Of a stretch of DNA of 64,000 nucleotides, positions 8,701 through 49,812 are shown piece by piece; positions within the stretch are counted from its first letter, which is position 1, and every line of letters begins with the position of its first letter. Source of the DNA: Candidatus Anderseniibacteriota bacterium (GTDB lineage: Bacteria > Patescibacteriota > Andersenbacteria > UBA10190). The notes under the pieces are model-generated. The model worked only from the letters and a program-made list of their open reading frames with translations, did no database searches and was not told the DNA's origin. The DNA lies in assembly GCA_040900375.1 (NCBI GenBank), contig JBBDZC010000018.1, positions 567 through 64,566 on the forward strand, read 5' to 3'. A program made the position numbers and the translations under genes.

Positions 8701-11700
8701 GACAGGGCTCCTCCCTAACCTCGAAATTGACAAGAGCGGCGGCACCCTCACGTTCACCGGCACGATCCGGACCGCTGTGGATTGGACATACACCGCTGGC
8801 ACACTCGACGCGACGACGAACGATTCGACGGTTATCTTTGGCGGGGCTTCGACGATCAACATCACTGGCTCGCACACGCTCGACAATGTGACTTTCGGCG
8901 ACAATTTCCAAGTGATCGTCAATATCGCTGATAACACGACGCTCACCATCGCCGGCACCCTCGCGCACACGAAGGCCCAAATCAATCAAACGACTGTCCC
9001 CGCCGCCGGGTCTCTTGCTGCGCAAGGCGATGTGACGGTTGGATCGGCTGCTCCCGGCGGGACTGCCGCCCTTACCTTCTCGGGAGGAAACGCGCAGACT
9101 TACACCGATAACGGCGGCACGAAGACGACAGGGACTGTTACTGTCAATAAGACGGCAGGGTCGGCCGTCACTCTCGCCACGGCCATGTCGTATACCGGCA
9201 CCGGCCAGGATCTCACCATTACCTCCGGCACGCTTGATCTCGCAGGTTTCAACCTCACCATCGCGGATGTCCTCACGGTCAACGGCGGCACCCTTACGGG
9301 GGAAACAGGCGCTGTTGATGTGAATGGCAGTGTCGTTTTGTCTTCCGGCACGCTCACCGCCCCCTCGGGCGCCTTCACTGTTGCCGGCGACTTCACCCAC
9401 AGTAGCGGCACCTTTACCCACAACTCTGGTACCCTCACCCTCGACGGCCCCGACCAAACCCTCGCGGGAGCCACCACCTTTCATAACTTAACCAAGACTG
9501 TCGCGACTGCTCGCACCTTAACCTTCCCGACTGGTTCAGCTAACAAGCAGACCATTGTGGGTACGCTGACCCTCCAAGGGGCATCAGGAGCCTTGCTCTC
9601 GCTGCGCTCGGCTTCCACCGGCACCCAGTGGCAGTTCGACCCTCAAGGCACCCGCACACTGTCCTTCTTAGACGTACAAGACAGCCACAATACCAATAGT
9701 ACGAGTATTGCCACGGCGGGCTTTAATATTACTGATAGTGGTAATAACACGGGCTGGTCGTTTAACCCTGAACCACCCTCTAACTTTGCGGGGACGGCCA
9801 TCTCCGGTACGGCCATCACCTGGACCTGGACGGATAACGCCACGGATGAAACGGGTTTCAAGCTCTTAGACGCGAGCGACACCGTAATTGCCACGATCAA
9901 CACTGCCAATGCGACTTCCTACACGGAAACCGGCCTCGCGGCTGGTACTGACTACAGTCGCAAACTGATTGCGTTCAATGGTGCTGGAGAATCAGCGGCC
10001 ACGAGTACAGTGACCGTCACCACGCTGACTTCACCTCCGACTGCCCCTGAACTGCGCTCACCGAGTAATGAAGCACTCTTAAACACCAATCTCCCCACGT
10101 TCTCCTGGAACAAGAGCACCGACAATGATGATGGGATGGCGACCTACACTCTCACTCTGGGCAGCCTGGTCCTCTCGGGGATTCCGGCGAGTGGCAGCAG
10201 TGCCTCTGACCCAGGGAGTAAAACCCACGTGGCTACCAGCTACACCGCCCAGTACTTTAATGAAAATGATGGCAATCCGGATAATGATTACATTGCCCTG
10301 ACGCTTAAAGACAGTGAGCGGGCGGATATCCCCCTTACTGACGGGGAACACTCGTGGTTCGTGACGGCGCACGATACGGCGGGGAACACCACCACCAGTG
10401 CCAGCCGCAGCTTCACGGTGGATACGCAGGCGCCCACGATTGGCAGTATCAGCTTTAGCCCGCCAGCGTTGTTGAGATCTGGCACCTACCGCTTACAGAG
10501 CGGCTCCCTGGCAGTCACCATCCCCCTCACCGATACCCAGGCCCTCCAGGAAGCCACCGTGACCTTTGCCCAGGCCCGCACGCTCTTTGGTCTCATCACC
10601 AGCTACACCACCCTCCAGAGTTCGACGTATGCCCTATCAGGGACTGCCCGGACGATCATCTTCGCTCCTCGGGAGGCCCTCACCGCGGGAGAGACGTACC
10701 GCATCAACATCACCGTCACTGATACCGCTGGGAACCGCAGGCTCCAGGACCTGACTCTCGTGGTGCTCACCCCCGAAGAGGCAGCCCGCGAGGCCGTTAT
10801 TGAACTCGATGCCGAGACGACGCCCATTGACATTATTATTGAGAAATTACGGGAGGCCTTACCGGATGCGCCCTTGAGTCTGCCGGATTTACAAGCGTCA
10901 GCGCTCCTGCGACGGGATCTGCAGGCCGAGCACTTCACCGCGTTCTGGCAGGGGTTACTAGGTAACCGCCTCATCGCCTGGGTACTCGATCACTTAGGTG
11001 GCTTTCCCCGTGCCCTCTTGGCAACTATTGATATCACCCAGAGCTTATGGGAGCGCTTATTGGCCCTCGCCATCCGGATAGCGGTGGCAGCCGGCACCAT
11101 GATTCGGGATACGAGCCTGGCGCTTGTCCATGGGGTCGTAGCAAGTGTTGATCGCGTCGCGCTCGAAACGACCACTGCCCAACGAATAGTCCGGCTACAG
11201 ACGGCCCGCGGGCTAGCACAGCTCGGCGCTCTCCTCGCCCAGCTGACGCCGACTCTTGGCGAACCGCTGCAGCAGGTGGGAGAAAGTTTAGCGCTGTCGC
11301 CGGATATAGGGATGGAGTATCGGGAGGAGCGCTTAACGACCCAGGCGCAGGTGAGTCGGATTAATACGCAATTACAGGCGGTGGGAAGCTTCTTCCGCGC
11401 CGGGTGGGAGACGGGTAGGGAGACGCGGGTGCGGACGGGACTCAAGAATCGGCAGGAATTGACACAAGGAACAGAACGGTTGCTGGGGCCGGTGGGGAGG
11501 TTGACAAAAACTCTGGCTCTTAAAACCCGAGCGACATACGAACTATGGCTGGATACTACCCCCACACATATTAGTAATGTCCGCGTGACCAAACTCACAC
11601 CGACGAGCGCGACCCTGGAATGGGATACTAACCACCTCGTCCGTTCCACTAAAGTTAACTACGGCACGACCACTAATTATAATCAGGAAGTTATTATCGA

Positions 11701-15682: not shown

Positions 15683-16822
15683 TTAATTTATACTCCCGAC
15701 TACAATTTCTGTGGCCTCGGGACGAGCGGGAACACTCTTCACCCAAAAAGGTGAGAATTGCACTTCCACTGACTCAACGCTCGGAAACTGTTGAAAATAC
15801 TCTTGCACCTCGGCGGCACTCCGACCGGCAAGGTTATCAGCGGAAAATAATGCTGGCCCCGCCTTACTGGCAAAGACGCCCGTTAGTGTTCCTTTAACAC
15901 GCGCTTCTCCCCGGGTAAAATCACTGCGCGTAATACTGACAGTAAATGATTCGGGTTTATACGACATAAATTCTTCATCGGGTTTTGGGGCCGAGCGCAG
16001 GGCGAGAAGAGTTAAACTCAACAGGTCGTTGTCATCAGGAAAAAAGCCGCGGGCTTTGATTTTTTTCTGCACAGTAAATTCAGTTGTTTTACTGCCGGCG
16101 GCGGCGGAAACACTCTCCTCCACTGTGGTCATAGTGACTAAATCTGGTCGGGTAAGCGCCCCCCCGGCCGCCGCCGTGAGTTCGCCCTCAATCCGCCCAC
16201 GCGCTTGTTTATCAACTTCTTCTTTGGCTCTGCTTATTTCTTCTTCGGTGAGCGGTGTCTCACCACTGACCCCACCACTGAAAGTAGTAGAGCTCTCGGC
16301 ATAGACGACCTTTTGCGCACTAGCGGGTAGCTTATCAATGATAAAGGTGCCGGGTGTGACGTTGCCGGGCAGTCCTTTTTCTTTCGCGGTCACGGCAACT
16401 GATACTTCCCCCAAGGGCGGAACAACCACAGCAGCATCAGTGAGAAAAAAGATGCCGGTGCCTTCGTGGCGTAAATGGGACTTTGGCAGCAGCCGCTGTT
16501 CTTCTGCCTGCTTATTAATTATTTTCACTGTGCCCCGCGCTAAGTCTTCAAATGTCTTTTGGCCCTCGCGCTTAAAAGTCTTAGTTTCCGTGACTTCCTT
16601 CTCCAGTAATTTGGCCGGCAAGATATAGCGGACAAAATCAGGTTCGTGACTAGTTTGCGACAAGGTAATTTCTTGCGTTACTTCCCGTTCATAGGTAGCG
16701 GGACGAACAATGATTGTTGCTTGCGGTAGGCGGGTATACGCCATACTAGCAAAAATCAGGCCAAGCAAAATTCCCGCGCTGGCGACTAGCGCCCGGCGAG
16801 GTATAGCAACGTGTGCAGGCAT
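15683..16822 (-). CDS. Hypothetical N-terminally membrane-anchored protein
   Basis: 379-aa ORF with an N-terminal transmembrane segment (ALVASAGILLGLIFASMAY) and no recognisable motif. Its ATG (16822-16820) lies inside the first terminal inverted repeat of the MITE-like element. Confidence 0.55.
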   Translation of the reverse strand: MPAHVAIPRRALVASAGILLGLIFASMAYTRLPQATIIVRPATYEREVTQEITLSQTSHEPDFVRYILPAKLLEKEVTETKTFKREGQKTFEDLARGTVKIINKQAEEQRLLPKSHLRHEGTGIFFLTDAAVVVPPLGEVSVAVTAKEKGLPGNVTPGTFIIDKLPASAQKVVYAESSTTFSGGVSGETPLTEEEISRAKEEVDKQARGRIEGELTAAAGGALTRPDLVTMTTVEESVSAAAGSKTTEFTVQKKIKARGFFPDDNDLLSLTLLALRSAPKPDEEFMSYKPESFTVSITRSDFTRGEARVKGTLTGVFASKAGPALFSADNLAGRSAAEVQEYFQQFPSVESVEVQFSPFWVKSVPARPEATEIVVGSIN

Positions 16823-18959: not shown

Positions 18960-19577
18960 CTAGAAATTTAAGGGAATGGCCGGCGAGGCCGCGGGAGTAG
19001 ATTCATCACTCGTACCCGCCACGTCAGCCTCGGGCGCTATCTCCTCCGACAAATCCCTGCCTTGGGCTTGGAGGGACTCGGTAATGAGAGCAAACTGTTC
19101 TTGAATTACCGCGTAGTGATCACGTTTACTTTCTAGTTCCTGGAGAACCGTTTGCACGGCGGCTCGTGCCTCACGCACTGGAGTGCGCATGGCAACTAAT
19201 AGCTCTACCGGCATAACCTCCAGCTGCTGTTGCATTTGCTTGGCACTGTCATCTAACAGCCGGGCCCGCCCGAGCAGCTCCTGGGCGGGGGGGTTTTCCG
19301 AGTCTAATAGCTGCTGCAAAGCCTCGGCATCCTCTTTAACGTACATGACTGCAATTTTCATCCGCTCTTCTTCGTCTCTGATAATGAAGCGTTCCGCCTC
19401 GCGTTTCCACTCGGTCGCTTGCAGCTTGAGCCGGGCCAGGGTTTCGGGTTGGCGGGCTAGGTTAAGAAGTGCTGTCGGGGCCCCCGCTAGACGTTCGGGG
19501 TGAACGGCTACCTCCAGCACTCCTGTGGCTATCGCGGCCGCGACGAGTAGGCCGAAGATAATGATCATTTTAACCAT
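18960..19577 (-). CDS. Hypothetical membrane-anchored coiled-coil protein
   Basis: 205 aa. N-terminal transmembrane segment (MVKMIIIFGLLVAAAIATGVL) followed by a charged, helical, Gln/Glu/Arg-rich region. No family assigned. Confidence 0.5.
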   Translation of the reverse strand: MVKMIIIFGLLVAAAIATGVLEVAVHPERLAGAPTALLNLARQPETLARLKLQATEWKREAERFIIRDEEERMKIAVMYVKEDAEALQQLLDSENPPAQELLGRARLLDDSAKQMQQQLEVMPVELLVAMRTPVREARAAVQTVLQELESKRDHYAVIQEQFALITESLQAQGRDLSEEIAPEADVAGTSDESTPAASPAIPLNF

Positions 19578-19649: not shown

Positions 19650-20192
19650 ATGGCTAAGATATATACTAAGACTGGTGATAGCGGGGAAACAGGCCTGATT
19701 GGCGGCAAGCGAATACCCAAAAACCATGTACGCGTCGAAGCGTATGGCACAGTGGATGAAGCTAATGCACTCATTGGTGTAGTCCTGTCCCGCCTAGATG
19801 ATTTTACTCATCGCGCCGAACTCGAGACTATCCAAGGCATGTTATTTGAGATCGGGGCAGTCTTGGCTGACTCGCGAGAAAGCCGCACTCGGCCCAATGA
19901 TAGCGACGTGTTTCGTCTGGAGGGGTTGATTGATGAGTTAACTACCACGTTACCGCCACAAATAACGTTCATTTTACCGGGCGGAACTAACCTGGCGGCG
20001 ATTTTGCACTTAGCCCGAACGGTGGTACGGCGGGCAGAGCGGCGGGTTATTACCGTGAGCCAAGGAGAGGATATCTCACCCACCGTAATTAAATATCTCA
20101 ACCGTCTATCTGATTATCTGCACACGCTGGCCCGCTTCATTAACCACGAACATGGCGTCTACGAGAAACCTTGGCAGTCTTTGAGCAAATAA
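19650..20192 (+). CDS. ATP:cob(I)alamin adenosyltransferase, PduO-type (MMAB-like)
   Basis: N-terminus MAKIYTKTGDSGETGLIGGKRIPKNHVRVEAYGTVDEANALIG matches the PduO-type consensus (MKIYTRTGDKGETSL...RVEAYGT.DE.N..IG). Confidence 0.8.
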   Translation: MAKIYTKTGDSGETGLIGGKRIPKNHVRVEAYGTVDEANALIGVVLSRLDDFTHRAELETIQGMLFEIGAVLADSRESRTRPNDSDVFRLEGLIDELTTTLPPQITFILPGGTNLAAILHLARTVVRRAERRVITVSQGEDISPTVIKYLNRLSDYLHTLARFINHEHGVYEKPWQSLSK

Positions 20193-22745: not shown

Positions 22746-24041
22746 TTACTTACGGACGGCGGGCGTCGCCCGCAGCAACGACAGAGCATCACCGACCATG
22801 TAGAGCGAGCCGGTAATGAGCATCATGCTGTCAGGTTTTATCAGCTTGCGGCCCACGGCTAGGGCGTGGGCAAGGGCAGGAATTTCCTGAACATGGGGGT
22901 GATGCGCTCGCAAAGCGCGAGCGACTACGCTGGTATCTTCCGGCTCATAACTACCTTGGGTAACGATTACCTGATCAAACAAAGGGGCAATATCTGTTTC
23001 CAGGCCTAACTGCTTGCCCTTCTTCTGGGCTACAATGAGAACATCAGGGTGCGGCAGCGGCATAGTTTTTAAGAAAGCGGCTAGTGCCTGCACGCCATCA
23101 TTATTGTGCGCTCCGTCTACCAAAATAAAGGGCTTACGGGAGACAATATCGAGCCGGCCTTCCCACACTGCCTGGCTTAGGCCGCGGGTCAGATGAGTGG
23201 GAGTGAGGACAAAGCCCTGGTCACGCAAGAGATGTAGCGTAAGCAACGCGGTGCAGGCATTGGTAATTTGGTGCTGACCCAAAAGCTTGATAAAGAACGT
23301 GTCGGTGATGGTCCCGGTAGTTGTAAATGTTTGTCCAGCTAACGAGGCGTGCGACTCTTTGACCGTAAGATGTTCGCCCACAGAATAGAAAGGTGCTTGT
23401 TGCTGCTGGCAGACGCCGGCAAAGTATTGCAGCAGTGCTGGTTGTGTCTCGGCAGTCACTACCGGTTGCCCCCTTTTAATAATCCCGGCTTTATTAGCAG
23501 CAATCGCCGCCTTATCCTCGCCAATCTCGGGCACATGGTCCAGGCCGATATTGGTAATAACAGCAACCAGCGGCGTAATGACATTGGTTGCATCAAGTGC
23601 TCCGCCCATGCCAACTTCAATAATGGCAATATCAACGCGGGCGCGGGCAAACTGTAAGAAAGTCAGAGCGGTCGTAAACTCAAAAAAAGTTATGGTTAGG
23701 TCGTAAGCGGCAATTTGAGAACGAACATGGGCGATTAAAGCAATTAACGCTTCATCGGTAATCGCTTGACCGTCGACCCGGATGCGTTCATTGAACTGGT
23801 AGAGATGCGGGCTGGTATACAGACCGACTTTATAGCCAGCAGCGCGCAAGGTTGATTCTAAGAAACTGGCAGTACTGCCTTTTCCGTTGGTGCCAGTTAT
23901 ATGGACACTGGGAAAAGAGGTCTGGGGATTGCCGAGGATAGCGCACAGCTTAGTCATGACCTCGAGGCCCAGCTTAATGCCGAAACGCTCGAGGTCGTAA
24001 ATGTACGCTAGCTGTTCATTGAGAGGGGCGGCTTGTGGCAT
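22746..24041 (-). CDS. folC: Folylpolyglutamate synthase / dihydrofolate synthase (Mur ligase family)
   Basis: YIYDLERFGIKLGLEVMTKLCAILGNP...HITGTNGKGSTASFLESTLRAAGYKVGLYTSPHL, typical of FolC. 431 aa. Confidence 0.8.
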   Translation of the reverse strand: MPQAAPLNEQLAYIYDLERFGIKLGLEVMTKLCAILGNPQTSFPSVHITGTNGKGSTASFLESTLRAAGYKVGLYTSPHLYQFNERIRVDGQAITDEALIALIAHVRSQIAAYDLTITFFEFTTALTFLQFARARVDIAIIEVGMGGALDATNVITPLVAVITNIGLDHVPEIGEDKAAIAANKAGIIKRGQPVVTAETQPALLQYFAGVCQQQQAPFYSVGEHLTVKESHASLAGQTFTTTGTITDTFFIKLLGQHQITNACTALLTLHLLRDQGFVLTPTHLTRGLSQAVWEGRLDIVSRKPFILVDGAHNNDGVQALAAFLKTMPLPHPDVLIVAQKKGKQLGLETDIAPLFDQVIVTQGSYEPEDTSVVARALRAHHPHVQEIPALAHALAVGRKLIKPDSMMLITGSLYMVGDALSLLRATPAVRK

Positions 24042-24110
24042 TTACAGGAATTATCAACTGTGAAACGATTATTAATAAGACATATTATTCTCACATAGAA
24101 ACAGTATTTT

Positions 24111-25826
24111 ATGAAATACCCTCTCCCCCGCGACAGTTTTGCCCCGCCCTTTGCGCCAGATGCTTATACCCCTGCAGAAAAGTGGCAACTGGTCCCCTTT
24201 TTTTCTAATCTTGATCAGTCAGTATATGCGCCGCTCATTTTTTCCCCGGAAGTTATCGGCGCTTTATGTTCCCGCGCCAGCCGCGCCGAAGATGACTTGA
24301 GGACCATATTCTTGCGTGAATATGTGGCACCGTTTCTCGAGCCCGAGACAGCTGCTACCGAAGCGGCTGCTCATCATGGTAAAAGCCTCAAGGAATTCAT
24401 TAATTTTCTCCAGGCTTACCCCATTGAGGAAATTTTTTCCAATCCGCGGGCACGGTCATTCTACGCCAAGTGGCTGGCTCAATATGGTGATGATTCGATC
24501 GCCCAGATGGCGGGTATGCATCTCGTTTTTGCCTCGCTCTCGCAAGTTGCGATTAAACATTTCGAAGATCAACGAATTGGCTTAGCCCCGATTGAAAAAT
24601 CGACGCGCTATGTTGATTACTCAACTAAAATCAATGGCCGTTGGCGCTACTATACTGATCCCACTCTCCGAGAATTAGGCTTGGAGCAAGCGTATGAGAC
24701 CGCCATGGATGGTTTGTTTACAACCTACGGACAGCTCCTGCCCCGGCTCATAAGGTGGCTAAGTGAACGCTTCCCGGAGGAAAAACGGTCAGTGGTGGAA
24801 AAGAAGGCTTTTGATGTCTTGCGGGGCTTGCTACCAACCTCGACCCTTTCTCAAGTGGCCTTTTTCGGCAATGGCCAAGCTTACGAATATCTTGTCAGCC
24901 GCTCGGGACACCATCCCTTGGGAGAAATCCGCTGGGCTAGCGAACGTGCATATGAAGAACTGTATAAAGTTGCCCCTTCATTCTTACGCCGCATTAAAGA
25001 TCCTGAGAGTCAAGCACTCGTCAACTCATACCAAGAATATTTAAGCGGCAAGGGCGAGCGCTTGCGGCCTTTGGTGGATAGATTTACGGCTGCCCACCAA
25101 AAAGTAGCGCAGCAAACAAAGGAAGAGACTTCAGTTAAGCTCTTAGAGTACGACCTGGAGGGCGAAGCAAAAGTGATTACCGGCATGCTTTATGCTGCCC
25201 CGAATAATCATGCCAGTTGGTCGGATATATTTTCTCGAGTACGCGCGCTTAACGAGAGTGAGCGGCAGGTAGTCCTGAATGCTTACTTTATCGGCCGCAC
25301 GCAACGTTGGCAAAAGGTTGGGCGCGCCCTCGAAAATATCTTTGTCCGCTTTGAAATCATGATGAATATTGGTGCCTGGCGTGATTTACACCGTCATCGC
25401 ATGCTCACCCAGCAACGGCAGTACTTTTCCTGTATGCATGGATATGACGTGCCGCCAGAGCTGATGAGCGCGGGCCTAGCGGATGAGTTTACAGAGGCAA
25501 TAGAACGGGTGGAGCGCGTGCATCAACACATCGCCGAATACGACCTGGACCTGGCCCAGTATGCGGTGACCATGGCCCACCGGGTACGATTCATGCAGTG
25601 GACTAACTTGCGGGAATGTTTCTGGGAGATTGAGTTACGCACGATTCCCGAGGGGCATCCGGACTACCGGAGAATCGAGCAAGAGAAATTTCGTTTGCTC
25701 CAGAAAGTTTATCCCCTGCTGGCAGAGCGCATGCATGTCAATTTAGACGAGTATAACTTTGCCCGCCGCGGTCAGGAAGAAAAAATCCAGGCTAAGCTCA
25801 AAGAGTTGACCAAGGTTAACGCCTGA
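24111..25826 (+). CDS. thyX: FAD-dependent thymidylate synthase, tandem two-domain ThyX type
   Basis: The C-terminal half carries WRDLHRHRML (RHR motif) and MQWTNLRECFWEIELRT (ThyX NLR...WEI block). The N-terminal half aligns to the same fold (HLVFASLSQVAIKHFEDQRIG...STRYVDYS) but lacks the RHR motif. At 571 aa it matches known duplicated ThyX proteins. Confidence 0.6.
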   Translation: MKYPLPRDSFAPPFAPDAYTPAEKWQLVPFFSNLDQSVYAPLIFSPEVIGALCSRASRAEDDLRTIFLREYVAPFLEPETAATEAAAHHGKSLKEFINFLQAYPIEEIFSNPRARSFYAKWLAQYGDDSIAQMAGMHLVFASLSQVAIKHFEDQRIGLAPIEKSTRYVDYSTKINGRWRYYTDPTLRELGLEQAYETAMDGLFTTYGQLLPRLIRWLSERFPEEKRSVVEKKAFDVLRGLLPTSTLSQVAFFGNGQAYEYLVSRSGHHPLGEIRWASERAYEELYKVAPSFLRRIKDPESQALVNSYQEYLSGKGERLRPLVDRFTAAHQKVAQQTKEETSVKLLEYDLEGEAKVITGMLYAAPNNHASWSDIFSRVRALNESERQVVLNAYFIGRTQRWQKVGRALENIFVRFEIMMNIGAWRDLHRHRMLTQQRQYFSCMHGYDVPPELMSAGLADEFTEAIERVERVHQHIAEYDLDLAQYAVTMAHRVRFMQWTNLRECFWEIELRTIPEGHPDYRRIEQEKFRLLQKVYPLLAERMHVNLDEYNFARRGQEEKIQAKLKELTKVNA

Positions 25827-25910
25827 TTCACCTGGCAGTCTTTAGTAACCCAAGAAGTACGTCACCAGCAGCGCGACCTAGTAGTTTTTCCCGGGAGCAG
25901 CTATAAAGAA

Positions 25911-27266
25911 ATGATGTCCCGAGCCCTCAAAAAAACTGATCTGCGTGTTTGGCGTATTCTCCAGCAAGAACAAGCGCGGCAGCAAGATAAATTATCTCTC
26001 ATCCCTTCGGAAAACTTTTTTTCGCCGGCCGTGCGCGAGGCCGTGGGCTCGGTGTTTATGCACAAATACGCGGAAGGCAATGTGGGCCAGCGCTACTATG
26101 AGGGCAACCAATTGGTAGATGAGCTGGAGTCGCTGGCGCAGGCGCGGGCGAAAAAGGTTTTTAAGTTGCCCCGCGACTGGGAGGTTAATGTGCAAGCCCT
26201 ATCGGGCAGTAACGCTAATCTGGCTGTTTACCTGGCGCTCTTAAAATTCGGCGACACCATGATGGGTATGTATCTGCCGGATGGCGGGCATTTATCTCAC
26301 GGCTGGTCATATGAGCCTCACCAACAACAAGATCCAACCAACTTGGCGTATCTAGGCGGTCGGCGCAAAGTCAACATTTCCTCGCGGATCTTCACCACGA
26401 TTCAATACAAAACTAACCCGAAGACCCAGCGCTTCGATTATCAAGAAATTGAGAAAATTGCAAAACGCTACAAGCCGCGTCTTATTATTACGGGGGGAAC
26501 AGCTTATCCTCGAGACATTAACTACCGCCGCTTCAAAAAAATTGCGCACCAGGTAGGCGCGCTCTATTTAGCAGACATTGCTCACGAAGCGGGGCTTGTG
26601 GCGGCGGGCGTGATTAATTCTCCCGTCGGGATCGCCGATGTTGTCACGATGACCACGCATAAAACATTGCGGGCTGGCCGGGGCGCTATCATTTTAGCCC
26701 GCGCCGAACTCATCAAAAAAATAAATCGCGCGGTGCTACCAGGGCTCCAGGGTGGCCCTTTTAATAATAATATTGCAGGGATTTGCGTCGGCTTAGGCGA
26801 AGCCCTCACACCACAATTTAAGCGATACGCTAAGCAGGTCATCACCAATGCCCACTATCTGGCCGAGTATCTTCAACGATATGGTTTTGTGCTTGTCTCG
26901 GGTGGCGTTGATAAACATCTGATTCTCATTAATCTGACTAGTCAGCCGATCCTCGGCAAAAAGTTTGCCCGGGCTTTAGACTATGGGGGCTTGGTTACCA
27001 ATTTCAATACTATGCCGCAAGAGACCCGTTCCCCCGCTGACCCTTCCGCGCTTCGGCTCGGGACTCCCTGGGTGACTACCCGCGGTATGGGTAAGCCGGA
27101 AATGAAGCAGATTGCCCAGTGGCTTAAGCACGTGATGGAAATCGCCTCACCCTGGGCCGAGACTCCGTTCCCCGAATTCGAGCGGCGTGTGCGGGCATCG
27201 CGGGAAATTAAAGACATCGCCCAGGTGGTAAAAAAGCTTTGCCGGCGGTTTCCGCTGGCCTTTTGA
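25911..27266 (+). CDS. glyA: Serine hydroxymethyltransferase
   Basis: LIPSENFFSPAVREAVGSVFMHKYAEGNVGQRYYEG...; PLP-lysine region TTHKTLRAGRGAII. 451 aa. Confidence 0.95.
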   Translation: MMSRALKKTDLRVWRILQQEQARQQDKLSLIPSENFFSPAVREAVGSVFMHKYAEGNVGQRYYEGNQLVDELESLAQARAKKVFKLPRDWEVNVQALSGSNANLAVYLALLKFGDTMMGMYLPDGGHLSHGWSYEPHQQQDPTNLAYLGGRRKVNISSRIFTTIQYKTNPKTQRFDYQEIEKIAKRYKPRLIITGGTAYPRDINYRRFKKIAHQVGALYLADIAHEAGLVAAGVINSPVGIADVVTMTTHKTLRAGRGAIILARAELIKKINRAVLPGLQGGPFNNNIAGICVGLGEALTPQFKRYAKQVITNAHYLAEYLQRYGFVLVSGGVDKHLILINLTSQPILGKKFARALDYGGLVTNFNTMPQETRSPADPSALRLGTPWVTTRGMGKPEMKQIAQWLKHVMEIASPWAETPFPEFERRVRASREIKDIAQVVKKLCRRFPLAF

Positions 27267-27319
27267 TCCAGCGGTTTTCCACTATACTTTTTTAGCGCAG
27301 CCAGTACTGTAAATAAGAT

Positions 27320-27895
27320 ATGATTTTGTCTGACCGTGATATCAAAGCCGCGCTTAAGTCCGGGAAAATTGTGGTGAAGCCAAAACCCAACTTGGTCATT
27401 CAACTCGGCACCTCGAGTCTTGATCTGCGCCTCGGGTACCATTTTCGTGTCTTTAAGCATCGCCGCAAGCCTTTTATTGACCCTTTGGATCCCGACACGA
27501 TGACGGGAATGACCGAGGAAGTTAAAATCAGCCGGGCGCAACCTTACGTTATCCAACCGGATGAATTTGTCTTAGCTTCAGTTTTGGAATGGATAGAATT
27601 ACCAGACAACATCTCGGCGCGGATTGATGGTCGTAGCAGTCTGGGTCGTATTGGTCTAGTGATCCATTCTACGGCAGGCCATATTGATGCTGGCTTTCAG
27701 GGTTCAATTACGATGGAATTAAGCAATATTGGCATGATGCCAATATTGCTCTATCCCAAAATGCGCATTTGCCAATTAGTATTTGAGCCACTATCTTCAG
27801 CCGCCGAGCGACCTTATACCCAAAAACCCGGCGCCAAGTACGCGGGTAAGACCAGACCGGCCGAGGCAGCATTAGCACAAGAAATCGTTGAATGA
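27320..27895 (+). CDS. dcd: dCTP deaminase
   Basis: MILSDRDIKAALKSGKIVVKP...SSLDLRLG...RSSLGRIGL, the Dcd/dUTPase-fold signature. 191 aa. Confidence 0.9.
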   Translation: MILSDRDIKAALKSGKIVVKPKPNLVIQLGTSSLDLRLGYHFRVFKHRRKPFIDPLDPDTMTGMTEEVKISRAQPYVIQPDEFVLASVLEWIELPDNISARIDGRSSLGRIGLVIHSTAGHIDAGFQGSITMELSNIGMMPILLYPKMRICQLVFEPLSSAAERPYTQKPGAKYAGKTRPAEAALAQEIVE

Positions 27896-28314
27896 TTAAG
27901 TTCAGGGTGAAAAAACTGGCCCCGGGTGCGAAACTGCCGACAAAACATATTGCCACAGATGCGGGCATTGACATTTATACTAACGAATCAAAAACTTTAA
28001 AACCAAGTGAAACCTACCTTTTTTCCACGGGTATTGCTGTCGAGTTTTCCCCGGGATATGTGGCTTTGCTCTGGGATCGCTCTGGATTAGGTAGTAAAGG
28101 CATTCACCGTTTAGCTGGAGTAATTGACTCGGGCTACCGCGGCGAATGGAAAGTGGTGCTGCTCAATACCACTAAAAAATCTTTTACCATTCATAAAGGC
28201 GACAAAATTGTGCAGTGTATCATGCAAAAATTTGAGCCTGTAAAAATTATGGAAGTCAAAAAATTGCGGCTCACCAAGCGCGGCAGTAAAGGTTTTGGCA
28301 GCTCGGGGCGCTAG
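27892..28314 (+). CDS. dut: dUTP diphosphatase
   Basis: AGIDIYT...IDSGYRGEWKVVLLNTTKKSFTIHKGDKIVQ (dUTPase motifs 3-4). Overlaps the dcd stop by 4 nt. Confidence 0.9.
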   Translation: MIKFRVKKLAPGAKLPTKHIATDAGIDIYTNESKTLKPSETYLFSTGIAVEFSPGYVALLWDRSGLGSKGIHRLAGVIDSGYRGEWKVVLLNTTKKSFTIHKGDKIVQCIMQKFEPVKIMEVKKLRLTKRGSKGFGSSGR

Positions 28315-28337
28315 GACATTTACCCCACTTCGCAGAA

Positions 28338-28358
28338 AGCCACGGCCTTTGAGGCCGT
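28338..28358. terminator. Hairpin between convergent dut and the DNPH1-like gene
   Basis: ccacggcc-tttga-ggccgtgg: an 8-bp perfect stem inside a 50-bp convergent gap. Confidence 0.5.
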
Positions 28359-28364
28359 GGAGCT

Positions 28365-28736
28365 TCACAAAAGTTGCTTGAGTATGAGGATAATATGCTC
28401 TTCGGTAATATAGGGATGGATTGCCTTAGTCACAAACTGGATCGCGGGGGAGGCTTCTTCAGCGCCTTCATAAAACGCGATGACTTCCTTGCCTGCCGCA
28501 TTCGCCCACCCAAGCTCAATGCCGCTTCCCGTAGAAGCAATGGAAACCTCAGCAATAACGAGGTCGCAGCTGGCTATATCCTGCTTAGTGATGTGAAGTT
28601 CCTCCTTCTTCTCGCGGGGATGGATTAACTCTACCCGGCCTTTCTCTTCAGCCGCGAATTGCTCCAGCGCATTGAAAAAGATGGGAGTGTGGCGGTGACC
28701 GCCGGAGGGGTGGGAAATAAACCACTTTGACATCAC
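28365..28736 (-). CDS. DNPH1/Rcl-like 2'-deoxynucleoside 5'-phosphate N-hydrolase (nucleoside 2-deoxyribosyltransferase fold)
   Basis: CDLVIAEVSIASTGSGIELGWANAAGKEVIAFYE aligns with the Rcl/DNPH1 core DVVVAEVT.PSLGVGYELG.A.ALGKPIL, including the catalytic Glu of the ELG motif. N-terminal WFISHPSGGHR compares with YFCGSIRGGR. 123 aa. Confidence 0.6.
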   Translation of the reverse strand: MMSKWFISHPSGGHRHTPIFFNALEQFAAEEKGRVELIHPREKKEELHITKQDIASCDLVIAEVSIASTGSGIELGWANAAGKEVIAFYEGAEEASPAIQFVTKAIHPYITEEHIILILKQLL

Positions 28737-28785
28737 TTAAGCTTAGAGGTTTTACTCCCTGCTCGCAAATCTCGAAGTAACCGGC

Positions 28786-29454
28786 CTAACTGGCGATGAG
28801 CCGAGGTTTAACATACTGCCAGACTTCTTCATGAAGATCTTCACGTGTTCGCTCTTGGCCCTGGCCATCGACACCGGCAATTGTAATCCAACCCTGTACC
28901 GCAGCAACTTTAAGATAGGCTGCCCGGATCGCGGTCAGTTTTTCTTTGGTCTCGAAGAAATCTTTATTCTTTTCCTTCAAGCGCCGCAGTGAGACAGCCA
29001 CAGGGGTATCAAGAAAAAGAACTAGGTCGGGTTGCGGCAGAGTGGGTTGACCCGTAAAGCAGAGCCACCAAATCCAATCATACATTTCTTGCCACTCCTG
29101 GCCGCGTAACCCCATGGTCTGGTACGCAAACGCGCTGGTACAAAAACGGTCCGAGACAACGAGCTGGCGGCCCGATTTTTCACTGGTGTGAGCAGTGATG
29201 TCCTCGGCACGCGAGAAGAAATCCTGAATGTATAACAACGCCTGCTCCCGGCGAGAGAAGGGTTTTTTATTCTTATGGAGCAGGAACTTATCGTAGATCA
29301 GGCGCCCGGTTGCCCGATCTTCTTGGGGAAAATGGAGCGAGAGCGGCTGATATTTTTCTTGCTGGAGGCGGCGCACGAGCCAGTCCGTCTGGGTTTGGCT
29401 ACCGCCCGCATCCAGGGCTTCAATAACGATGAAGGGAGAAGGTCGCTTAGGCAT
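28786..29454 (-). CDS. Thymidylate kinase-family paralog with degenerate Walker A (Lys replaced)
   Basis: Tmk fold is indicated by FIVIEALDAGGSQTQ (consensus IVIEGLDGSGKSTQ) and VVSDRFCTSAFAYQ (DRY..S.AYQ). The P-loop Lys and Ser/Thr are replaced (GGSQT). The gene overlaps the upstream tmk stop by 8 nt. Confidence 0.55.
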   Translation of the reverse strand: MPKRPSPFIVIEALDAGGSQTQTDWLVRRLQQEKYQPLSLHFPQEDRATGRLIYDKFLLHKNKKPFSRREQALLYIQDFFSRAEDITAHTSEKSGRQLVVSDRFCTSAFAYQTMGLRGQEWQEMYDWIWWLCFTGQPTLPQPDLVLFLDTPVAVSLRRLKEKNKDFFETKEKLTAIRAAYLKVAAVQGWITIAGVDGQGQERTREDLHEEVWQYVKPRLIAS

Positions 29455-30175
29455 AGGCTTGGAGTAACTGCGGAAATTTAAGACGCAGGTTTTCCCAAAC
29501 TAATTCTGCCACGTCATCAACGTTCAATAGCTCCTCTCCCTCCACACAGAGGATCCGGAGAAACCGCGCGGGATCTTGCTGGCACAGGAGATCATATTCA
29601 TTGTAGAGTCGTTGTTGAATTTCCAGGTGATCGGTATACTCATCCTTGTCTTGCATCTTTTCTTTTCGTTTCTCTAAAAGACCAACAGAGATCTCGGGCA
29701 GTATATCTAAAAAAAGTGAAATGTGTTCCAAGGGCATCTGTTGCTCTTGATATTCATAGCGGCTAACAGCGGCTTGAATTTTATCCCGAAAGAGTTCGGT
29801 TTCCTGCACGTCCAATCCCTCAATGGTCATAAAGGCAATACTGCTGGCTACGTACCGATCATAGATGACTATTTCTCCTAATTTGAGGGCCTGTAGAACT
29901 TCTGCGCGGTGCTCGGCACGATTGTGTGCAAATAGGCGCATTTTTTCCGGCCACGGTATCGCCTGCCAGCGCCCATCTTTATTCTGGAGCTTTTGCTTTA
30001 ATTTTTGGCCGCTGGAAGTGGTATAATCGGGACTTTCAAAATGATGAACAACGTGCCCCATAAATCGCAGGCGCCGGAGGAGATGCTGAACCTGGGTATG
30101 CTTGCCGGACGAATCAAGGCCATCAAAAGCAATCAGCAGGCCAGTGGGTTTAGGCGCAGGACACATACATTCCAC
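29447..30175 (-). CDS. tmk: Thymidylate (dTMP) kinase
   Basis: LIAFDGLDSSGKHTQ (intact Walker A), IYDRYVASSIAFM (DRY motif), and a LID-like LEKRKEKMQDKDEYTDHLE segment. The true start is probably an internal Met (MCPAPK...). Confidence 0.7.
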   Translation of the reverse strand: MECMCPAPKPTGLLIAFDGLDSSGKHTQVQHLLRRLRFMGHVVHHFESPDYTTSSGQKLKQKLQNKDGRWQAIPWPEKMRLFAHNRAEHRAEVLQALKLGEIVIYDRYVASSIAFMTIEGLDVQETELFRDKIQAAVSRYEYQEQQMPLEHISLFLDILPEISVGLLEKRKEKMQDKDEYTDHLEIQQRLYNEYDLLCQQDPARFLRILCVEGEELLNVDDVAELVWENLRLKFPQLLQAYA

Positions 30176-30260: not shown

Positions 30261-30935
30261 TTACAGCGCCACCCGGATACCTGGACTCATGGTGCTCTTA
30301 AGTGTGCAATTTTTAATTAGCCGGCCTTTGACGGCGGATGGCTTGGCTTGGCGGACAGCTTCGAGGACAGCCGTCACGTTTTTGACAATCTGGTCTGTTT
30401 CCCAGCTAGTCTTACCCACCGCTTCATGGATATTGCCAAGCTGATCCATCTTAAATGACAATTTACCGCCGAGAAGTTCCCGGACCACACTGGCTGGATC
30501 GGCACTCACTGTTCCCGTCTTGGGATTAGGCATTAATCCCTGGGGGCCTAAGGTGCGGGCAATCTTAGCAATTTTAGGCATCATCGCGGGCGTGGCCACT
30601 ACTACATCAGCCTTAAGCTGACCGGATTTCACAACGGCCGCAATGAGCTCTTCTCCCCCAACAATCGCGGCGCCAGCTTGCTGGGCCGTTGCCTGCTCCG
30701 CGTCATCCGCAAAGACAGCAATCTTCTTGGCTTTGGGGGCCCCAGCCGGCAAGGTAACACTCGCCCGCACGATCTGATCAGATTTAGTAGGATCAACTCC
30801 AAGATGAATATGAACTTCAATCGTCTCATCCACATTCGGCCGCGCGTGCTCGCGCAAAAAGGCGACTGCGGTGGTTAGATCAACCGCTTGCGCCGGGGCT
30901 TTCTCCTGCACCGTTTTGTATCGTTTACTGCGCAT
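30261..30935 (-). CDS. rplA: 50S ribosomal protein L1
   Basis: VQEKAPAQAVDLTTAVAFLREHARPNVDETIEVHIHLGVDP...KIAVFA. The ORF-track start at 30977 overlaps rplK; the internal Met at 30935 (MRSKRYKTVQEK) is the likely start. Confidence 0.9.
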   Translation of the reverse strand: MRSKRYKTVQEKAPAQAVDLTTAVAFLREHARPNVDETIEVHIHLGVDPTKSDQIVRASVTLPAGAPKAKKIAVFADDAEQATAQQAGAAIVGGEELIAAVVKSGQLKADVVVATPAMMPKIAKIARTLGPQGLMPNPKTGTVSADPASVVRELLGGKLSFKMDQLGNIHEAVGKTSWETDQIVKNVTAVLEAVRQAKPSAVKGRLIKNCTLKSTMSPGIRVAL

Positions 30936-30936
30936 A

Positions 30937-31356
30937 CTATTGAACAGTAATACCCATGGACCGAGCCGTCCCTTCAATAATTTTCATAGCGGCCTCTAGG
31001 TCACGGGCAGACAAGTCGGCCATTTTACGTTCCGCAATCTCCCGCACCTGGGCGCGTTTGACAGTGCCTACTTTATTAGTATTCGGCATGCCAGAACCTT
31101 TGGTCACTTTGGCGGCTTTCTTGAGTAGTTCGGCAGCGGGCGGAGTTTTTAGTTTCAGCGACATGCTGCGATCATCATAAATTGTCACCTCAACAGGAAT
31201 AATATCACCCATCATTTCTCGGGTCATATCGTTAAACCTGGTAACGAATTCTTGCAAGTTAACACCATGCTGCCCTAAAGCTGTTCCTACCGGCGGCGCC
31301 GGGGTGGCTTTACCACCGGGAGCTTGTAATTTAACAATGGTCTTTATCTGGGGCAT
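30937..31356 (-). CDS. rplK: 50S ribosomal protein L11
   Basis: [42 protein letters not shown]. Confidence 0.92.
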
Positions 31357-31387: not shown

Positions 31388-31960
31388 TCAAACTTCCTTC
31401 TTTACCTGTAAAAAGTCAAGTTCTACAGGAGTTTCGCGGCCAAAGACATTAACCAACACCTTAACGGTACCCTTAGCTTCATTAATTTCGGCAATTTTAC
31501 CTTCAAAATCCCTGAAAGGACCGTCCATGATCTTAACCGAATCACCCTCCACCACATCAATCTTATACTTAGGCTCTTCTTCACCCATGCGCTTAAGGAG
31601 GCGATCAACTTCTTCTTGGGAGACGGGCGTGGGCGTCGTGCCGGAACCGACGAAGCCAGTAACATTTGGCGTATTACGCACCACATACCATGAGTCTTCC
31701 GTAACAATCATCTGCACTAGCACGTAGCCGGGAAAGAGCCGTTCTTCGATAGTCTGGCGTTTACCATTCTTAACTCGGATTTTTTTCTCGCGCGGCACGA
31801 TTACTTGAAAGATCTTCTCTTCCATGCCCATTGACTCAATACGCTGGCGCAAATTACGCGCCACGTTGTCTTCATAACCAGAGTATGTGTGAAGAACATA
31901 CCACGCCCGATTATCCGAGTTATGGATGACAGGTTTTGATTGCTGTTTGAGATCGGCCAT
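31388..31960 (-). CDS. nusG: Transcription antitermination factor NusG
   Basis: WYVLHTYSGYEDNVARNLRQRIE (NGN domain) and a C-terminal KOW (GDSVKIMDGPFRDFEGKIAEI). Confidence 0.9.
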   Translation of the reverse strand: MADLKQQSKPVIHNSDNRAWYVLHTYSGYEDNVARNLRQRIESMGMEEKIFQVIVPREKKIRVKNGKRQTIEERLFPGYVLVQMIVTEDSWYVVRNTPNVTGFVGSGTTPTPVSQEEVDRLLKRMGEEEPKYKIDVVEGDSVKIMDGPFRDFEGKIAEINEAKGTVKVLVNVFGRETPVELDFLQVKKEV

Positions 31961-31971: not shown

Positions 31972-32196
31972 TTAAATAAGAGCGTTAATGATAAGAGTTA
32001 AAAGATAATCAATGCCCCCAGTAATAAAGCCTAGAATGAGACAGGTAATGATAACCAGGATAGTATAACGAATTGTTGTCTCCCGAGACGGCCAGGAGAC
32101 TTTCTTGAGTTCGCCGCGAGCTTCACTAAAAAACTGCATGATTGCGTACGGTCCACGGCTTAGCTTTGATAGGGCAGGGTAAGCAATTTTAACCAT
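31972..32196 (-). CDS. secE: Preprotein translocase subunit SecE
   Basis: 74 aa: FFSEARGELKKVSWPSRETTIRYTILVIITCLILGFITGGIDYLL, in the conserved secE-nusG-rplK-rplA order. Confidence 0.75.
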   Translation of the reverse strand: MVKIAYPALSKLSRGPYAIMQFFSEARGELKKVSWPSRETTIRYTILVIITCLILGFITGGIDYLLTLIINALI

Positions 32197-32274: not shown

Positions 32275-34272
<1,998 letters not shown>

Positions 34273-46207: not shown

Positions 46208-46657
46208 TTAGTCGGTGAAACACTCACCGGGCCCTAAGCGCAAGCGCCGTTCTTCCTGAAAGGCGTTACCGTCAGGAAATCGGCCGGTGACCTGTACGCA
46301 AGGGGTAATACCATCACTCGGCAGATACTTTGCTTCTCCTTCGTAGCCCGCAGTGCTTGTATCTGGGACAGACCCATACTCGACTGCTCCTGTAAGCGGG
46401 GTAGATTCTTGGGCAAATAATGATAACTCATACAAGCCTTGTTCTAACCCCGAATTAGCGGCATAGAAAGCGCGCTCGGAAGAGATCGCGTCCGTGGTAG
46501 CGCGAATTTGGCGAGCTAAGATAATGCTAAAAAGGATGGCAGAGGAAACAATAATCGCGAGCATAATGAGCGACATGTAAATCGCAATATCGCCGCGCTG
46601 CTGGTGACCCGCGGGTTGCTTAAGTCTCCGAGTGGTTAGGGAGGATAGCATAGTCAT
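46208..46657 (-). CDS. PilX-like minor pilin / pilus-associated protein
   Basis: 149 aa. N-terminus RGDIAIYMSLIMLAIIVSSAILFSIILA resembles a PilX N-terminal domain. Last gene of the pilus operon. Confidence 0.45.
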   Translation of the reverse strand: MTMLSSLTTRRLKQPAGHQQRGDIAIYMSLIMLAIIVSSAILFSIILARQIRATTDAISSERAFYAANSGLEQGLYELSLFAQESTPLTGAVEYGSVPDTSTAGYEGEAKYLPSDGITPCVQVTGRFPDGNAFQEERRLRLGPGECFTD

Positions 46658-47256: not shown

Positions 47257-47257
47257 A

Positions 47258-47812: not shown

Positions 47813-47813
47813 A

Positions 47814-48338: not shown

Positions 48339-48434
48339 CTCTTTAAGTGTACCTTAGTGTTGTCACAATTTACACGCCCACCCCTTCAGCTGCTATCCTT
48401 GAGTAAGGTGTGCGGAAGCGAACTTTGGTATTCC

Positions 48435-49238: not shown

Positions 49239-49245
49239 ACACTAC

Positions 49246-49728: not shown

Positions 49729-49757
49729 TTTTATATCGTATCACAAAGTACTGCAGC

Positions 49758-49787
49758 AAAACACTCGCCGATTGCTGGCGAGTGTTT
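49758..49787 (-). terminator. Strong hairpin terminator/attenuator between the two pilin genes
   Basis: Perfect 11-bp stem aaacactcgcc / ggcgagtgttt with a 7-nt loop. On the minus strand it is followed by TTTTGCTGCAG. Confidence 0.55.
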
Positions 49788-49812
49788 CGTTAACAGCTGT
49801 TAGTATGACAGG

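Follow-up and report, generated by a model that had tools for sequence, protein, structure and literature searches.

In a 64,000-nt stretch of the tiny genome of a groundwater bacterium of Candidatus Anderseniibacteriota (contig JBBDZC010000018.1, positions 567 to 64,566; this whole stretch is called the window below), we find a compact block of eight genes, at window positions 22,746-30,175, that runs directly up to the ribosomal protein genes rplA and rplK. The block carries folC, a gene for a fused, two-domain ThyX (denoted ThyX2), glyA, dcd, dut, ndt (encoding an N-glycosidase of the DNPH1/Rcl-BcmB/MilB kind) and two genes of the Tmk fold, tmkA and tmkB. We consider it likely that this block is a housekeeping thymidylate-supply island of Ca. 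Andersenbacteria, kept in a fixed slot between rplK-rplA and gatB, with ThyX2, TmkA, the ndt enzyme and read-through transcription acting as proposed below.

A predicted route from dCTP to dTDP

Families were assigned by Pfam and NCBIfam scans of the open reading frames (ORFs) of the window, using curated cutoffs. All eight ORFs are present at their coordinates with the families as named, in agreement with a preliminary description of this DNA that had listed folC, a two-domain thyX, glyA, dcd, dut, a DNPH1/Rcl-like dNMP N-hydrolase and two Tmk-family kinases within 7.4 kb. That description had allowed for reassignment of some of these ORFs by homology searches; none occurred, and both the thyX and the DNPH1-like calls hold.

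The gene identities also agree with the textbook route that had been proposed from deoxycytidine triphosphate (dCTP) to deoxythymidine diphosphate (dTDP), in which Dcd, Dut, ThyX and Tmk act in this order and the folate side is served by GlyA and FolC; FolC, GlyA, Dcd and Dut score above their curated cutoffs. We regard this reading, with its folate recycling, as well supported, and infer the following activities. Dcd would convert dCTP to dUTP, and Dut would convert dUTP to dUMP. The fused ThyX would then use methylenetetrahydrofolate (CH2-THF), flavin adenine dinucleotide (FAD) and NAD(P)H to turn dUMP into dTMP, with release of tetrahydrofolate (THF). GlyA would recharge THF from serine, FolC, encoded by the divergent gene, would retain the folate by polyglutamylation, and TmkB would phosphorylate dTMP to dTDP. 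TmkA would most likely serve TmkB, either as a partner without catalysis of its own or as a subunit that binds a ligand. The ndt enzyme would most likely split surplus or unwanted pyrimidine nucleoside monophosphates into the base and (deoxy)ribose 5-phosphate, a putative role in salvage or in sanitation of the nucleotide pool around the Tmk step.

In the thyA-folA unit of most bacteria, which encodes thymidylate synthase and dihydrofolate reductase (DHFR), the synthase likewise stands beside folate-cycle partners. The window, in contrast, uses ThyX, whose product is THF, together with serine hydroxymethyltransferase and FolC, and contains no DHFR gene. The earlier statement that no DHFR is needed is correct as ThyX chemistry, but it does not describe every relative: locus L084 (contig k141_1775951), which has the same full layout, carries a gene for a 157-aa DHFR (PF00186; L084:11737-12210) between thyX and glyA. 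This enzyme may serve in the reduction of salvaged folate or dihydrofolate. The co-location of thymidylate synthase with folate partners has been discussed for hosts of the candidate phyla radiation (CPR) (PMC11974145), and dTMP synthesis has been described as belonging to the minimal Patescibacteria repertoire (PMC12455944).

Conservation of the arrangement

For a survey of synteny, one genome per GTDB species was scanned with a ThyX alignment, which yielded 80 loci that were compared with all window proteins; six further contigs bearing homologs (L081, L082, L083, L084, L085 and L086) were examined besides. The full order gatB<folC<>thyX>glyA>dcd>dut><ndt<tmkA<tmkB<rplA<rplK<nusG<secE<gyrB recurs with identical orientations in at least four other, independent assemblies, which stem from different projects (NCBI, ENA and JGI data): L025 (698-kb contig), L084 (ENA, 139 kb), L085 (NCBI, 11 kb) and L086 (JGI, 36 kb). 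The arrangement is therefore conserved rather than unique to one as the preliminary description had feared, and the recurrence of the same order and orientation in four other assemblies excludes a mis-join. Another locus, L017, has the full layout minus dcd-dut.

The window layout is a combination of two conserved blocks. One of them, pheST-gyrB-secE-nusG-rplK-rplA-tmkB-tmkA-(ndt), faces dut-dcd, after which come gatB-miaA; it occurs on its own in L081, L082 and L083, where thyX is located elsewhere. The other, the divergent pair folC and thyX-glyA, is found in about 20 Andersenbacteria species loci with no gene of the first block in the flank examined. Among the 80 loci the divergent folC-thyX pair is present in 22 and glyA follows thyX in 32, rplK lies within 10 kb of thyX2 in 13, and a tmk is present in 19. 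Wherever tmkA was seen, rplA precedes the pair tmkB-tmkA; in relatives the spacer between rplA and tmkB is a 1-nt overlap in L082, 0 nt in L086 and at most 164 nt, in L083. A tmk gene downstream of rplA is the norm in the Andersenbacteria lineage, and no quirk of a single genome. The gene order had been called atypical, and it is so in that tmkB-tmkA and ndt, with no rplJ-rplL, come after rplA; within the lineage, however, tmk after rplA is usual.

The string gyrB-secE-nusG-rplK is found in at least 12 related loci. It is kept in distant Parcubacteria (Sung-, Terry- and Uhr-type; ThyX 47-63% identical), in which dcd, dut, P-loop kinases or a dCMP-deaminase-like ORF come next to rplK, with tmk and thyX2 behind them and, often, gatB and miaA farther on. 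In genomes with a ThyX that is 63-70% identical, the position of the block is fixed among core genes (rplKA, gatB, miaA, thrS, dnaE). The linkage of thyX2 with rplK is recurrent and old, short of universal, and the merged layout is a feature of a sub-clade. The gene set is held together by selection.

A two-domain ThyX

ThyX2 consists of an N-half (about aa 30-295, 62.3 bits) and a C-half (about aa 390-560, 56.1 bits), each of which passes the Pfam Thy1 gathering score of 24.8. It has 1736 homologs at E<=1e-5, of which the top 120, at 60-72% identity, are annotated 'FAD-dependent thymidylate synthase'. The protein shares its fold with the ThyX enzymes TM0449 of T. maritima and Rv2754c of M. 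tuberculosis (Mtb) (PF02511), its best matches in the Protein Data Bank (PDB) by sequence and structure; for the structural model the best folds are the ThyX proteins of Mtb, C. glutamicum and T. maritima. The two halves were not found to resemble each other: BLASTP of the N-half against the C-half gave no pairwise similarity, a profile-profile comparison aligned 33 columns at 15% probability, and the profile of the C-half retrieved no ThyX among PDB sequences. Direct mapping between the halves is not possible because they are too diverged.

The active site of ThyX is built from three subunits (PMC5954106). In the Mtb enzyme, subunit A contacts FAD through RHR95-97 and dUMP through R95 and R199; S71 and R190 of subunit B also hold FAD, and R87, S105, R107 and Y108 of subunit C also hold dUMP (PMC6514825). 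By alignment, the N-half of ThyX2 retains S129, E162-x-S164-x-R166-Y167, R238 and R264; it has D153-Q154-R155 in place of RHR, Q145 for R87 and Q256 for R190. The C-half retains R428-H429-R430, as well as R501 and R510 at the positions of R190 and R199, and has no conserved S-x-R-Y and Q483 for the other dUMP Arg. The mapped residues are invariant in 25 sequences, apart from R264, which is near-invariant (>=90%). No single domain thus contains the whole ThyX motif RHR(x)7S with R-Y, which is complete only across both halves. All that single-domain ThyX uses (RHR, the Ser-x-Arg-Tyr loop, the dUMP arginines, and the Ser and Arg of the FAD phosphate) is present somewhere in the ThyX2 chain, and the expected reaction is the same, CH2-THF and NAD(P)H giving dTMP and THF.

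The simplest reading of these residue patterns is that the two halves have degenerated in complementary ways, leaving two composite sites per pseudo-tetramer and not four; it is the complementarity of the losses that suggests two sites. ThyX2 would then be a dimer of fused pseudo-dimers, in which the C-half plays subunit A (the RHR and FAD side) and the N-half plays subunit C, supplying the Ser-x-Arg-Tyr loop on the dUMP side. Homotetrameric ThyX has four sites, whereas ThyX2, with two Thy1 domains per chain, is predicted to have two composite sites per dimer. A natural 741-aa protein, P0383, joins a canonical Tmk to the same two-domain ThyX, and this supports dTMP as the product of ThyX2. A ThyX of roughly double the usual length occurs in Chlamydia, too. 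A literature search on tandem or fused ThyX, or on ThyX of the CPR, found nothing relevant.

The Tmk pair

TmkA and TmkB share the fold and the DR[YF] motif of known dTMP kinases (PF02223, TIGR00041; Aquifex 2pbr, Plasmodium 2wwf, Mtb 1g3u). Unlike those enzymes, they form a pair of neighbouring paralogs that are translationally coupled, share 27% identity and both score under the equivalog cutoffs. They had been described as two Tmk-family kinases; Pfam upholds the Tmk fold for both, but the Walker-A Lys and the dTMP-phosphate Arg are found only in TmkB. Known Tmks have a Lys and an Asp in the P-loop and the 'NR' Arg, and TmkB retains all three. Its P-loop is canonical (GLDSSGKHTQ) and fits the Walker-A pattern GxxGxGK[ST], and alignment to the Plasmodium and Aquifex enzymes shows an Arg in 'AHNR', matching 'SANR' of Plasmodium Tmk, together with a DRY motif. 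It therefore has both the Arg for the dTMP phosphate and DR[YFH], and would be the kinase-like member of the pair.

TmkA does not fit the Walker-A pattern. Its P-loop, EALDAGGSQTQ, has Ser at the position of the Walker-A Lys, a replacement seen in 120 of 120 homologs and also in the 48% identical ortholog of L017. The dTMP-phosphate Arg is missing as well, Phe79 (117/120 homologs) standing at the place of the Arg in 'EASR' of Aquifex Tmk 2pbr. D15, D102-R103-F/Y, Y111-Q112 and a Lys-rich LID are retained. TmkA is conserved no less than TmkB, with 58-59% against 44-56% identity in the same four genomes. An exhaustive phmmer search of 1.84 billion representatives gave a tight cluster at 300 bits and then a drop to 82 bits. 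The family forms one isolated cluster at 50% identity and, judged from these searches, is young and isolated. NCBI annotates TmkA as 'hypothetical protein', and it has a weak match to Pfam dNK. Bit scores do not decide which of the two, TmkA or TmkB, is orthologous to the single Tmk of other Parcubacteria.

These features suggest that TmkA is probably not a kinase but a non-catalytic or non-canonical family member, and we favour a non-catalytic partner of TmkB. Tmks are dimers, and this, together with the constant adjacency of the two genes, their overlap and a natural Tmk-Tmk fusion (P0307, 448 aa), points to TmkA as the partner of TmkB. Other natural fusions join Tmk to an NDT-like domain (P0334 and P0351, 379 aa). 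P0383, P0334, P0351 and P0307 are each a singleton cluster at 90% identity, and a frameshift or gene-calling artefact is possible for any single one of them; as independent evidence, the Tmk-ThyX2 and Tmk-NDT-like fusions add to the case for functional coupling. A further protein, P0407 (391 aa), combines a ThyA fragment, a pterin-binding DUF4346 domain and Tmk.

Tmk-family proteins that lack the Walker-A Lys also occur in other lineages, which include Aigarchaeota/Nitrososphaeria and Gracilibacteria (P0327, P0328, P0331, P0332, P0341, P0345, P0346, P0359, P0372, P0437, P0439 and P0443). Those of other lineages carry S, T, G or D at this position, so that loss of the Lys seems to have recurred among Tmk paralogs. 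A literature search on Lys-less Tmk found nothing relevant.

A DNPH1/BcmB-like N-glycosidase

The ndt protein matches BcmB (a CMP N-glycosidase, E = 2.6e-4), Rcl/DNPH1 and MilB among PDB sequences. Its AlphaFold2 (AF2) model, built on a 30-sequence alignment, has a predicted local distance difference test score (pLDDT) of 93.7, and the top 50 Foldseek matches of the model are all DNPH1/Rcl or BcmB (template-modelling score 0.64-0.77, probability 1.00), with no classical nucleoside deoxyribosyltransferase among them. H8, E62, S64, S67, G71, G75, S95 and Y108 are invariant in the family, and the motif AEVSxxSTGSGIELG has the family form AEV(S/T)xxSxGxGxELG. The fold is thus accompanied by the nucleophile Glu of GxGxE(L/I)G: E73, near-invariant (>=90% of the family), corresponds to the nucleophile E104 of DNPH1. 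The roles of the DNPH1 catalytic residues Y24, D80, S98, E104 and S128' are taken from PMC10603095. The invariant S67 aligns with the phosphate Ser S98, and the invariant S95 lies in the region of S128', to which we equate it by position. Since S67 and S95 match the phosphate serines, the sequence points to a nucleoside 5'-monophosphate as the substrate.

Neither the catalytic Tyr nor the acid Asp of DNPH1 is conserved here. At the position of Tyr24 the Andersenbacteria clade has Phe or Trp, a Tyr being confined to distant members of the family, and the column equivalent to Asp80 is variable. In MilB, a Phe at the Tyr position (F17) has been linked to ribose preference (PMC10603095). Of the label 'DNPH1/Rcl-like dNMP N-hydrolase' in the preliminary description, the fold and family are borne out by Foldseek and Pfam; the deoxy specificity is not, because of the Phe/Trp at the catalytic Tyr position, as in MilB. 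The enzyme class is supported, in other words, and a specificity for deoxynucleoside monophosphates (dNMPs) is not established.

Compared with DNPH1/Rcl (5-hydroxymethyl-dUMP N-hydrolase) and with BcmB and MilB, which are N-glycosidases of CMP and 5-hydroxymethyl-CMP (hmCMP), all of them members of the nucleoside 2-deoxyribosyltransferase (NDT) superfamily, the window protein has the same fold, nucleophile Glu and phosphate Ser. It differs in its length of 123 aa, in the Phe/Trp for Tyr24 and in the invariance of His8 and Tyr108. Its context also differs from that of the N-glycosidases of biosynthetic clusters, as its neighbours are Tmk, Dut and Dcd, with Tmk also the fusion partner in P0334 and P0351. 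The gene is missing from L081 and L082 and is hence accessory.

The ribosomal gene string

In the window, as in the standard secE-nusG-rplK-rplA-rplJ-rplL-rpoB-rpoC string, secE-nusG-rplK-rplA stand in the same order on one strand. The window differs from that string in having gyrB ahead of secE and tmkB-tmkA-ndt where rplJ-rplL would be expected, so that tmkB and not rplJ-rplL directly follows rplA. A tblastn search with E. coli L10 and L12 found no rplJ or rplL in the window or in 83 related loci, a negative of moderate strength.

In Parcubacteria outside Andersenbacteria, no rplA homolog was detectable after rplK in loci L020, L023, L027, L029, L031, L032, L035, L037, L062, L063 and L066. 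The space after rplK is filled there by gmk-like P-loop kinases, a dCMP-deaminase-like ORF, dcd or dut. Some OD1 lineages are reported to be without ribosomal protein L1.

Layout and transcription of the locus

On the minus strand, ndt, tmkA and tmkB run straight on into rplA-rplK-nusG-secE-gyrB (Table 1). The tmkB gene begins 85 nt past the rplA stop and overlaps tmkA by 8 nt. The divergent folC and thyX are separated by 69 nt, the stop of dcd overlaps the start of dut by 4 nt, and the ends of the two convergent units, dut and ndt, are 50 nt apart with a hairpin between them. The GC content is 0.49-0.51 throughout the block and flat across the junctions. Counted from its listed TTG start (30977), rplA shares 41 nt with rplK, and an in-frame ATG is located at 30935, just past the rplK stop. 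Residue 16 is the first one covered by the NCBIfam L1 match, and the true start is probably this ATG, which gives a gene of 30261-30935.

Table 1. Features of the block and its ribosomal flank, in window coordinates
Feature	Position	Strand	Evidence
folC (folylpolyglutamate synthase / FolC family)	22746-24041	-	TIGR01499 365 bits vs cutoff 163; Mur_ligase_M and Mur_ligase_C domains
two-domain thyX (ThyX2), 571 aa	24111-25826	+	Pfam Thy1 112.7 bits, 2 stretches
glyA (serine hydroxymethyltransferase)	25911-27266	+	Pfam SHMT 451 bits; NF000586 462 bits vs cutoff 335
dcd (dCTP deaminase)	27320-27895	+	TIGR02274 196 bits vs cutoff 93
dut (dUTP diphosphatase)	27892-28314	+	TIGR00576 134 bits vs cutoff 103
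hairpin, GC-rich, 9 bp as folded	28340-28360	between convergent dut and ndt	RNA fold
ndt, DNPH1/Rcl-BcmB/MilB-like N-glycosidase, 123 aa	28365-28736	-	Pfam PF05014 29.3 bits vs 28.8
tmkA, Tmk-fold paralog	28786-29454	-	Pfam Thymidylate_kin 73 bits vs 27
tmkB, Tmk-family kinase (predicted)	29447-30175	-	Pfam Thymidylate_kin 68 bits vs 27; NF005923 74 bits
rplA (L1)	30261-30977	-	TIGR01169 248 bits vs cutoff 216
rplK (L11)	30937-31356	-	TIGR01632 184 bits vs cutoff 142
nusG	31388-31960	-	Pfam NusG and KOW
secE	31972-32196	-	Pfam SecE 70.8 bits
gyrB	32275-34263	-	Pfam DNA_gyraseB, Toprim, HATPase_c

The hairpin folds at -17.7 kcal/mol (z = -3.0) on the plus strand and -19.6 kcal/mol (z = -1.5) on the minus strand and has no strong U-tract; we take it as a candidate bidirectional terminator. 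We were not able to find a significant or terminator-like fold in the rplA-tmkB spacer (z = -0.14). Consensus scans of the region were at chance both for promoters (19 found, 12.6 +/- 4 expected) and for terminators (18 found, 16.2 +/- 4.6 expected), and an Rfam search of the window at gathering thresholds returned three tRNAs only, with no ribosomal-protein leader. Since the spacers are short or zero in relatives and no terminator-like structure is seen, tmkB-tmkA-ndt are probably read through from the gyrB-secE-nusG-rplK-rplA string. The genes thyX-glyA-dcd-dut would form a second, convergent unit that ends at the shared hairpin. With such an organization, co-regulation that couples dTTP supply to translation and growth is plausible.

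The convergent junction itself appears to be a hot spot of insertion in relatives. Between dut and the tmkA/ndt end, L085 carries a gene with a NYN domain and three further ORFs, two of them unannotated (106 and 121 aa) and one of 43 aa (L085:8244-9707), and L083 carries a gene for a 23S_rRNA_IVP/Avd-like four-helix bundle (L083:5951-6316).

Alternative explanations

Several findings weigh against a housekeeping thymidylate island with the roles proposed here. ThyX2 is below the NCBIfam equivalog cutoff (TIGR02170, 24 bits vs 87.9), and so are both Tmks (TIGR00041 cutoff 83.25, TmkA 76.8 and TmkB 59.7; NF005923 cutoff 193). The residue mapping of the ThyX2 C-half comes from motif inspection and Pfam coordinates, hhalign and the PDB profile search having given no alignment, and the AF2 monomer model of ThyX2 is moderate (pLDDT 71), with low values in the loops of the C-half. 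Among the 150 nearest Tmk representatives, about 16 that belong to other lineages are without the Walker-A Lys, and 9 of the 10 Lys-less Tmks scanned against NCBIfam exceed the dTMP-kinase equivalog cutoff, so that a Lys-less Tmk such as TmkA might still be active. The rplA-tmkB spacer contains a sigma-70-like hexamer pair, a kind of hit that is at chance level in the region, and an independent tmkBA transcript is conceivable. Linkage of thyX2 to rplK is limited to the 13 of 80 species loci given above, and the fully merged layout to one of 32 fully evaluable loci. Finally, the data are those of the window, and a tmk, thyA, tdk or nrd gene elsewhere in the genome could alter the picture.

We give next to no credence to the idea that the adjacency is an assembly artefact or a matter of chance in a single contig of a metagenome-assembled genome. 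The contig does come from a metagenome assembly, and folC-thyX-glyA lie apart from the rplKA-tmk block in most Andersenbacteria species loci; yet L025, L084, L085 and L086 repeat the identical order and orientation, GC is uniform over the junctions, genes overlap or abut there, and the fusion proteins tie Tmk to ThyX2 and to NDT-like domains. Mis-assembly was rejected on the repeated layout and the uniform GC. Very improbable, too, is a mobile, phage-derived or anti-phage nucleotide module inserted beside rplA, of the kind of defensive dCTP deaminases or of the auxiliary nucleotide genes of phages. Homologs of Dcd, Dut and Tmk do occur in phages (PHROGs), the two Tmk-fold proteins have weak matches to the candidate defence family PDC-M51B (30 and 24 bits, PADLOC), and relatives have small insertions in their blocks (NYN domain in L085, Avd-like in L083). 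Against such an origin, Dcd, Dut, ndt and ThyX2 have no PADLOC match, ThyX2 and ndt have no PHROG, Dcd and Dut are above housekeeping equivalog cutoffs, and among the annotated neighbours we noticed neither an integrase or transposase nor repeats. We rejected it for the fixed position between core genes across relatives, the uniform GC and the weakness of the PADLOC similarity, which is confined to the Tmk fold.

It is improbable, though somewhat less so, that the block makes or polices 5-hydroxymethyl-dUMP (hmdUMP) or another modified nucleotide, with ThyX2 an altered methylene transferase, the Tmk pair handling a modified dNMP and ndt cleaving a 5-hydroxymethyl pyrimidine nucleotide. The nearest solved relatives of ndt act on hmdUMP (DNPH1) and hmCMP (MilB), BcmB being a CMP glycosidase; PolB, a UMP/dUMP methylase and ThyX homolog, is among the fold matches of ThyX2; TmkA has a remodelled P-loop and NMP site; and the sub-cutoff scores of ThyX2 and both Tmks point the same way. 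However, ThyX2 is the sole thymidylate synthase seen in the examined loci, is widespread and strongly conserved, and keeps in its two halves together the residues of the dUMP and FAD sides. Its neighbours Dcd, Dut, GlyA and FolC are the exact partners of dTMP synthesis, a Tmk with canonical P-loop is fused to it in P0383, ndt is accessory given its absence from L081 and L082, and no modification, glycosyltransferase or aminotransferase genes are nearby. For TmkA, a working (d)NMP kinase with another substrate (dUMP, dCMP or a nucleoside), in which the LID lysines K162-K164 replace the P-loop Lys, is unlikely although quite conceivable: the protein is strongly conserved, including D15, D102-R103, Y111-Q112 and the basic LID, it has the weak dNK match, and some of the Lys-less Tmks elsewhere are over the equivalog cutoff and annotated as dTMP kinases. 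On the other side stand Ser for Lys in all 120 homologs and Phe for Arg in 117, which remove basic contacts at both the donor and the acceptor site, and the canonical TmkB, which is always encoded immediately upstream, often in an overlapping gene. Returning to TmkA as a partner of TmkB, we offer as a tentative and rather doubtful extension that it is a dedicated pseudo-kinase, devoid of both basic residues that contact phosphate and yet under strong purifying selection, in an obligate heteromer with TmkB, possibly recruiting the DNPH1-like glycosidase; the complex would gate the dTMP-to-dTDP step, sorting dTMP from dUMP or 5-substituted dUMP, with its dosage tied to ribosomal-protein expression through read-through from rplK-rplA.

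Other genes of the window

ThyX2, TmkA and the ndt protein have 100% identical counterparts in an NCBI metagenome-assembled genome of Ca. Andersenbacteria. The other genes of the window fit a CPR genome, among them dnaE, thrS, miaA, gatB, gatA, pheST, ligA and iPGM. A 3132-aa ORF at 2702-12100 (+), with NHL repeats, a lactonase-like beta-propeller and fn3, Big_13 and SH3 domains, is a surface protein; its GC content is 0.54-0.585, against about 0.50 in the remaining window. Between dnaE and thrS, at 15683-16822 (-), lies a 379-aa ORF with a weak Baseplate_J-like match, whose position is conserved in L081, L083, L084 and L086 in a core-gene context. A 205-aa ORF without Pfam match is found at 18960-19577 (-), and ORFs of 200-208 aa, without a recorded Pfam match and alike in position only, adjoin thrS in the same four loci.

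Beside miaA-gatB, at 19650-20192 (+), the window encodes a PduO-type cob(I)alamin adenosyltransferase that is also found in L012, L025, L083, L084 and L086. It could be the source of adenosylcobalamin for a class II ribonucleotide reductase; there is no nrd gene within the window. A type IV pilus cluster occupies 46208-59203 (-) and comprises several N-methyl prepilins, an A24 prepilin peptidase, a PMT_2-family glycosyltransferase-like protein, a PilC-like T2SSF protein, two T2SSE ATPases, a response-regulator receiver and PilM/N/O.

Discussion

The pathway and each of the families described here are already known; ThyX2, TmkA and the ndt enzyme are unusual variants of them. In the literature searched we found no description of a conserved placement of such genes after rplKA in place of rplJL, nor of a complementary half-site ThyX, a Lys- and Arg-less TmkA or a minimal DNPH1/BcmB-like enzyme. 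The three candidate enzyme variants (the tandem ThyX, the Lys-/Arg-less Tmk paralog and the minimal DNPH1/BcmB-like glycosidase) are widespread in metagenomes. They do not overturn known biochemistry, and their value lies in the accuracy of annotation and as examples of enzyme evolution. One consequence for annotation is that TmkA should not carry the name dTMP kinase. If the heteromeric gate sketched above were true, then, taken with the half-site ThyX, it would imply that asymmetric, subfunctionalised pairs of paralogs carry out the last two steps of thymidylate supply in one branch of the CPR, which has rebuilt them in this way.

CPR/Patescibacteria have tiny genomes and are described in the literature as being without most de novo nucleotide synthesis. 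The genes for deoxynucleoside triphosphate (dNTP) supply that they retain, and the order in which these stand, show what they cannot get from their hosts. A DNA-precursor pathway that is physically tied to a string of translation genes, in a layout recurrent in Parcubacteria, provides a concrete and testable case.

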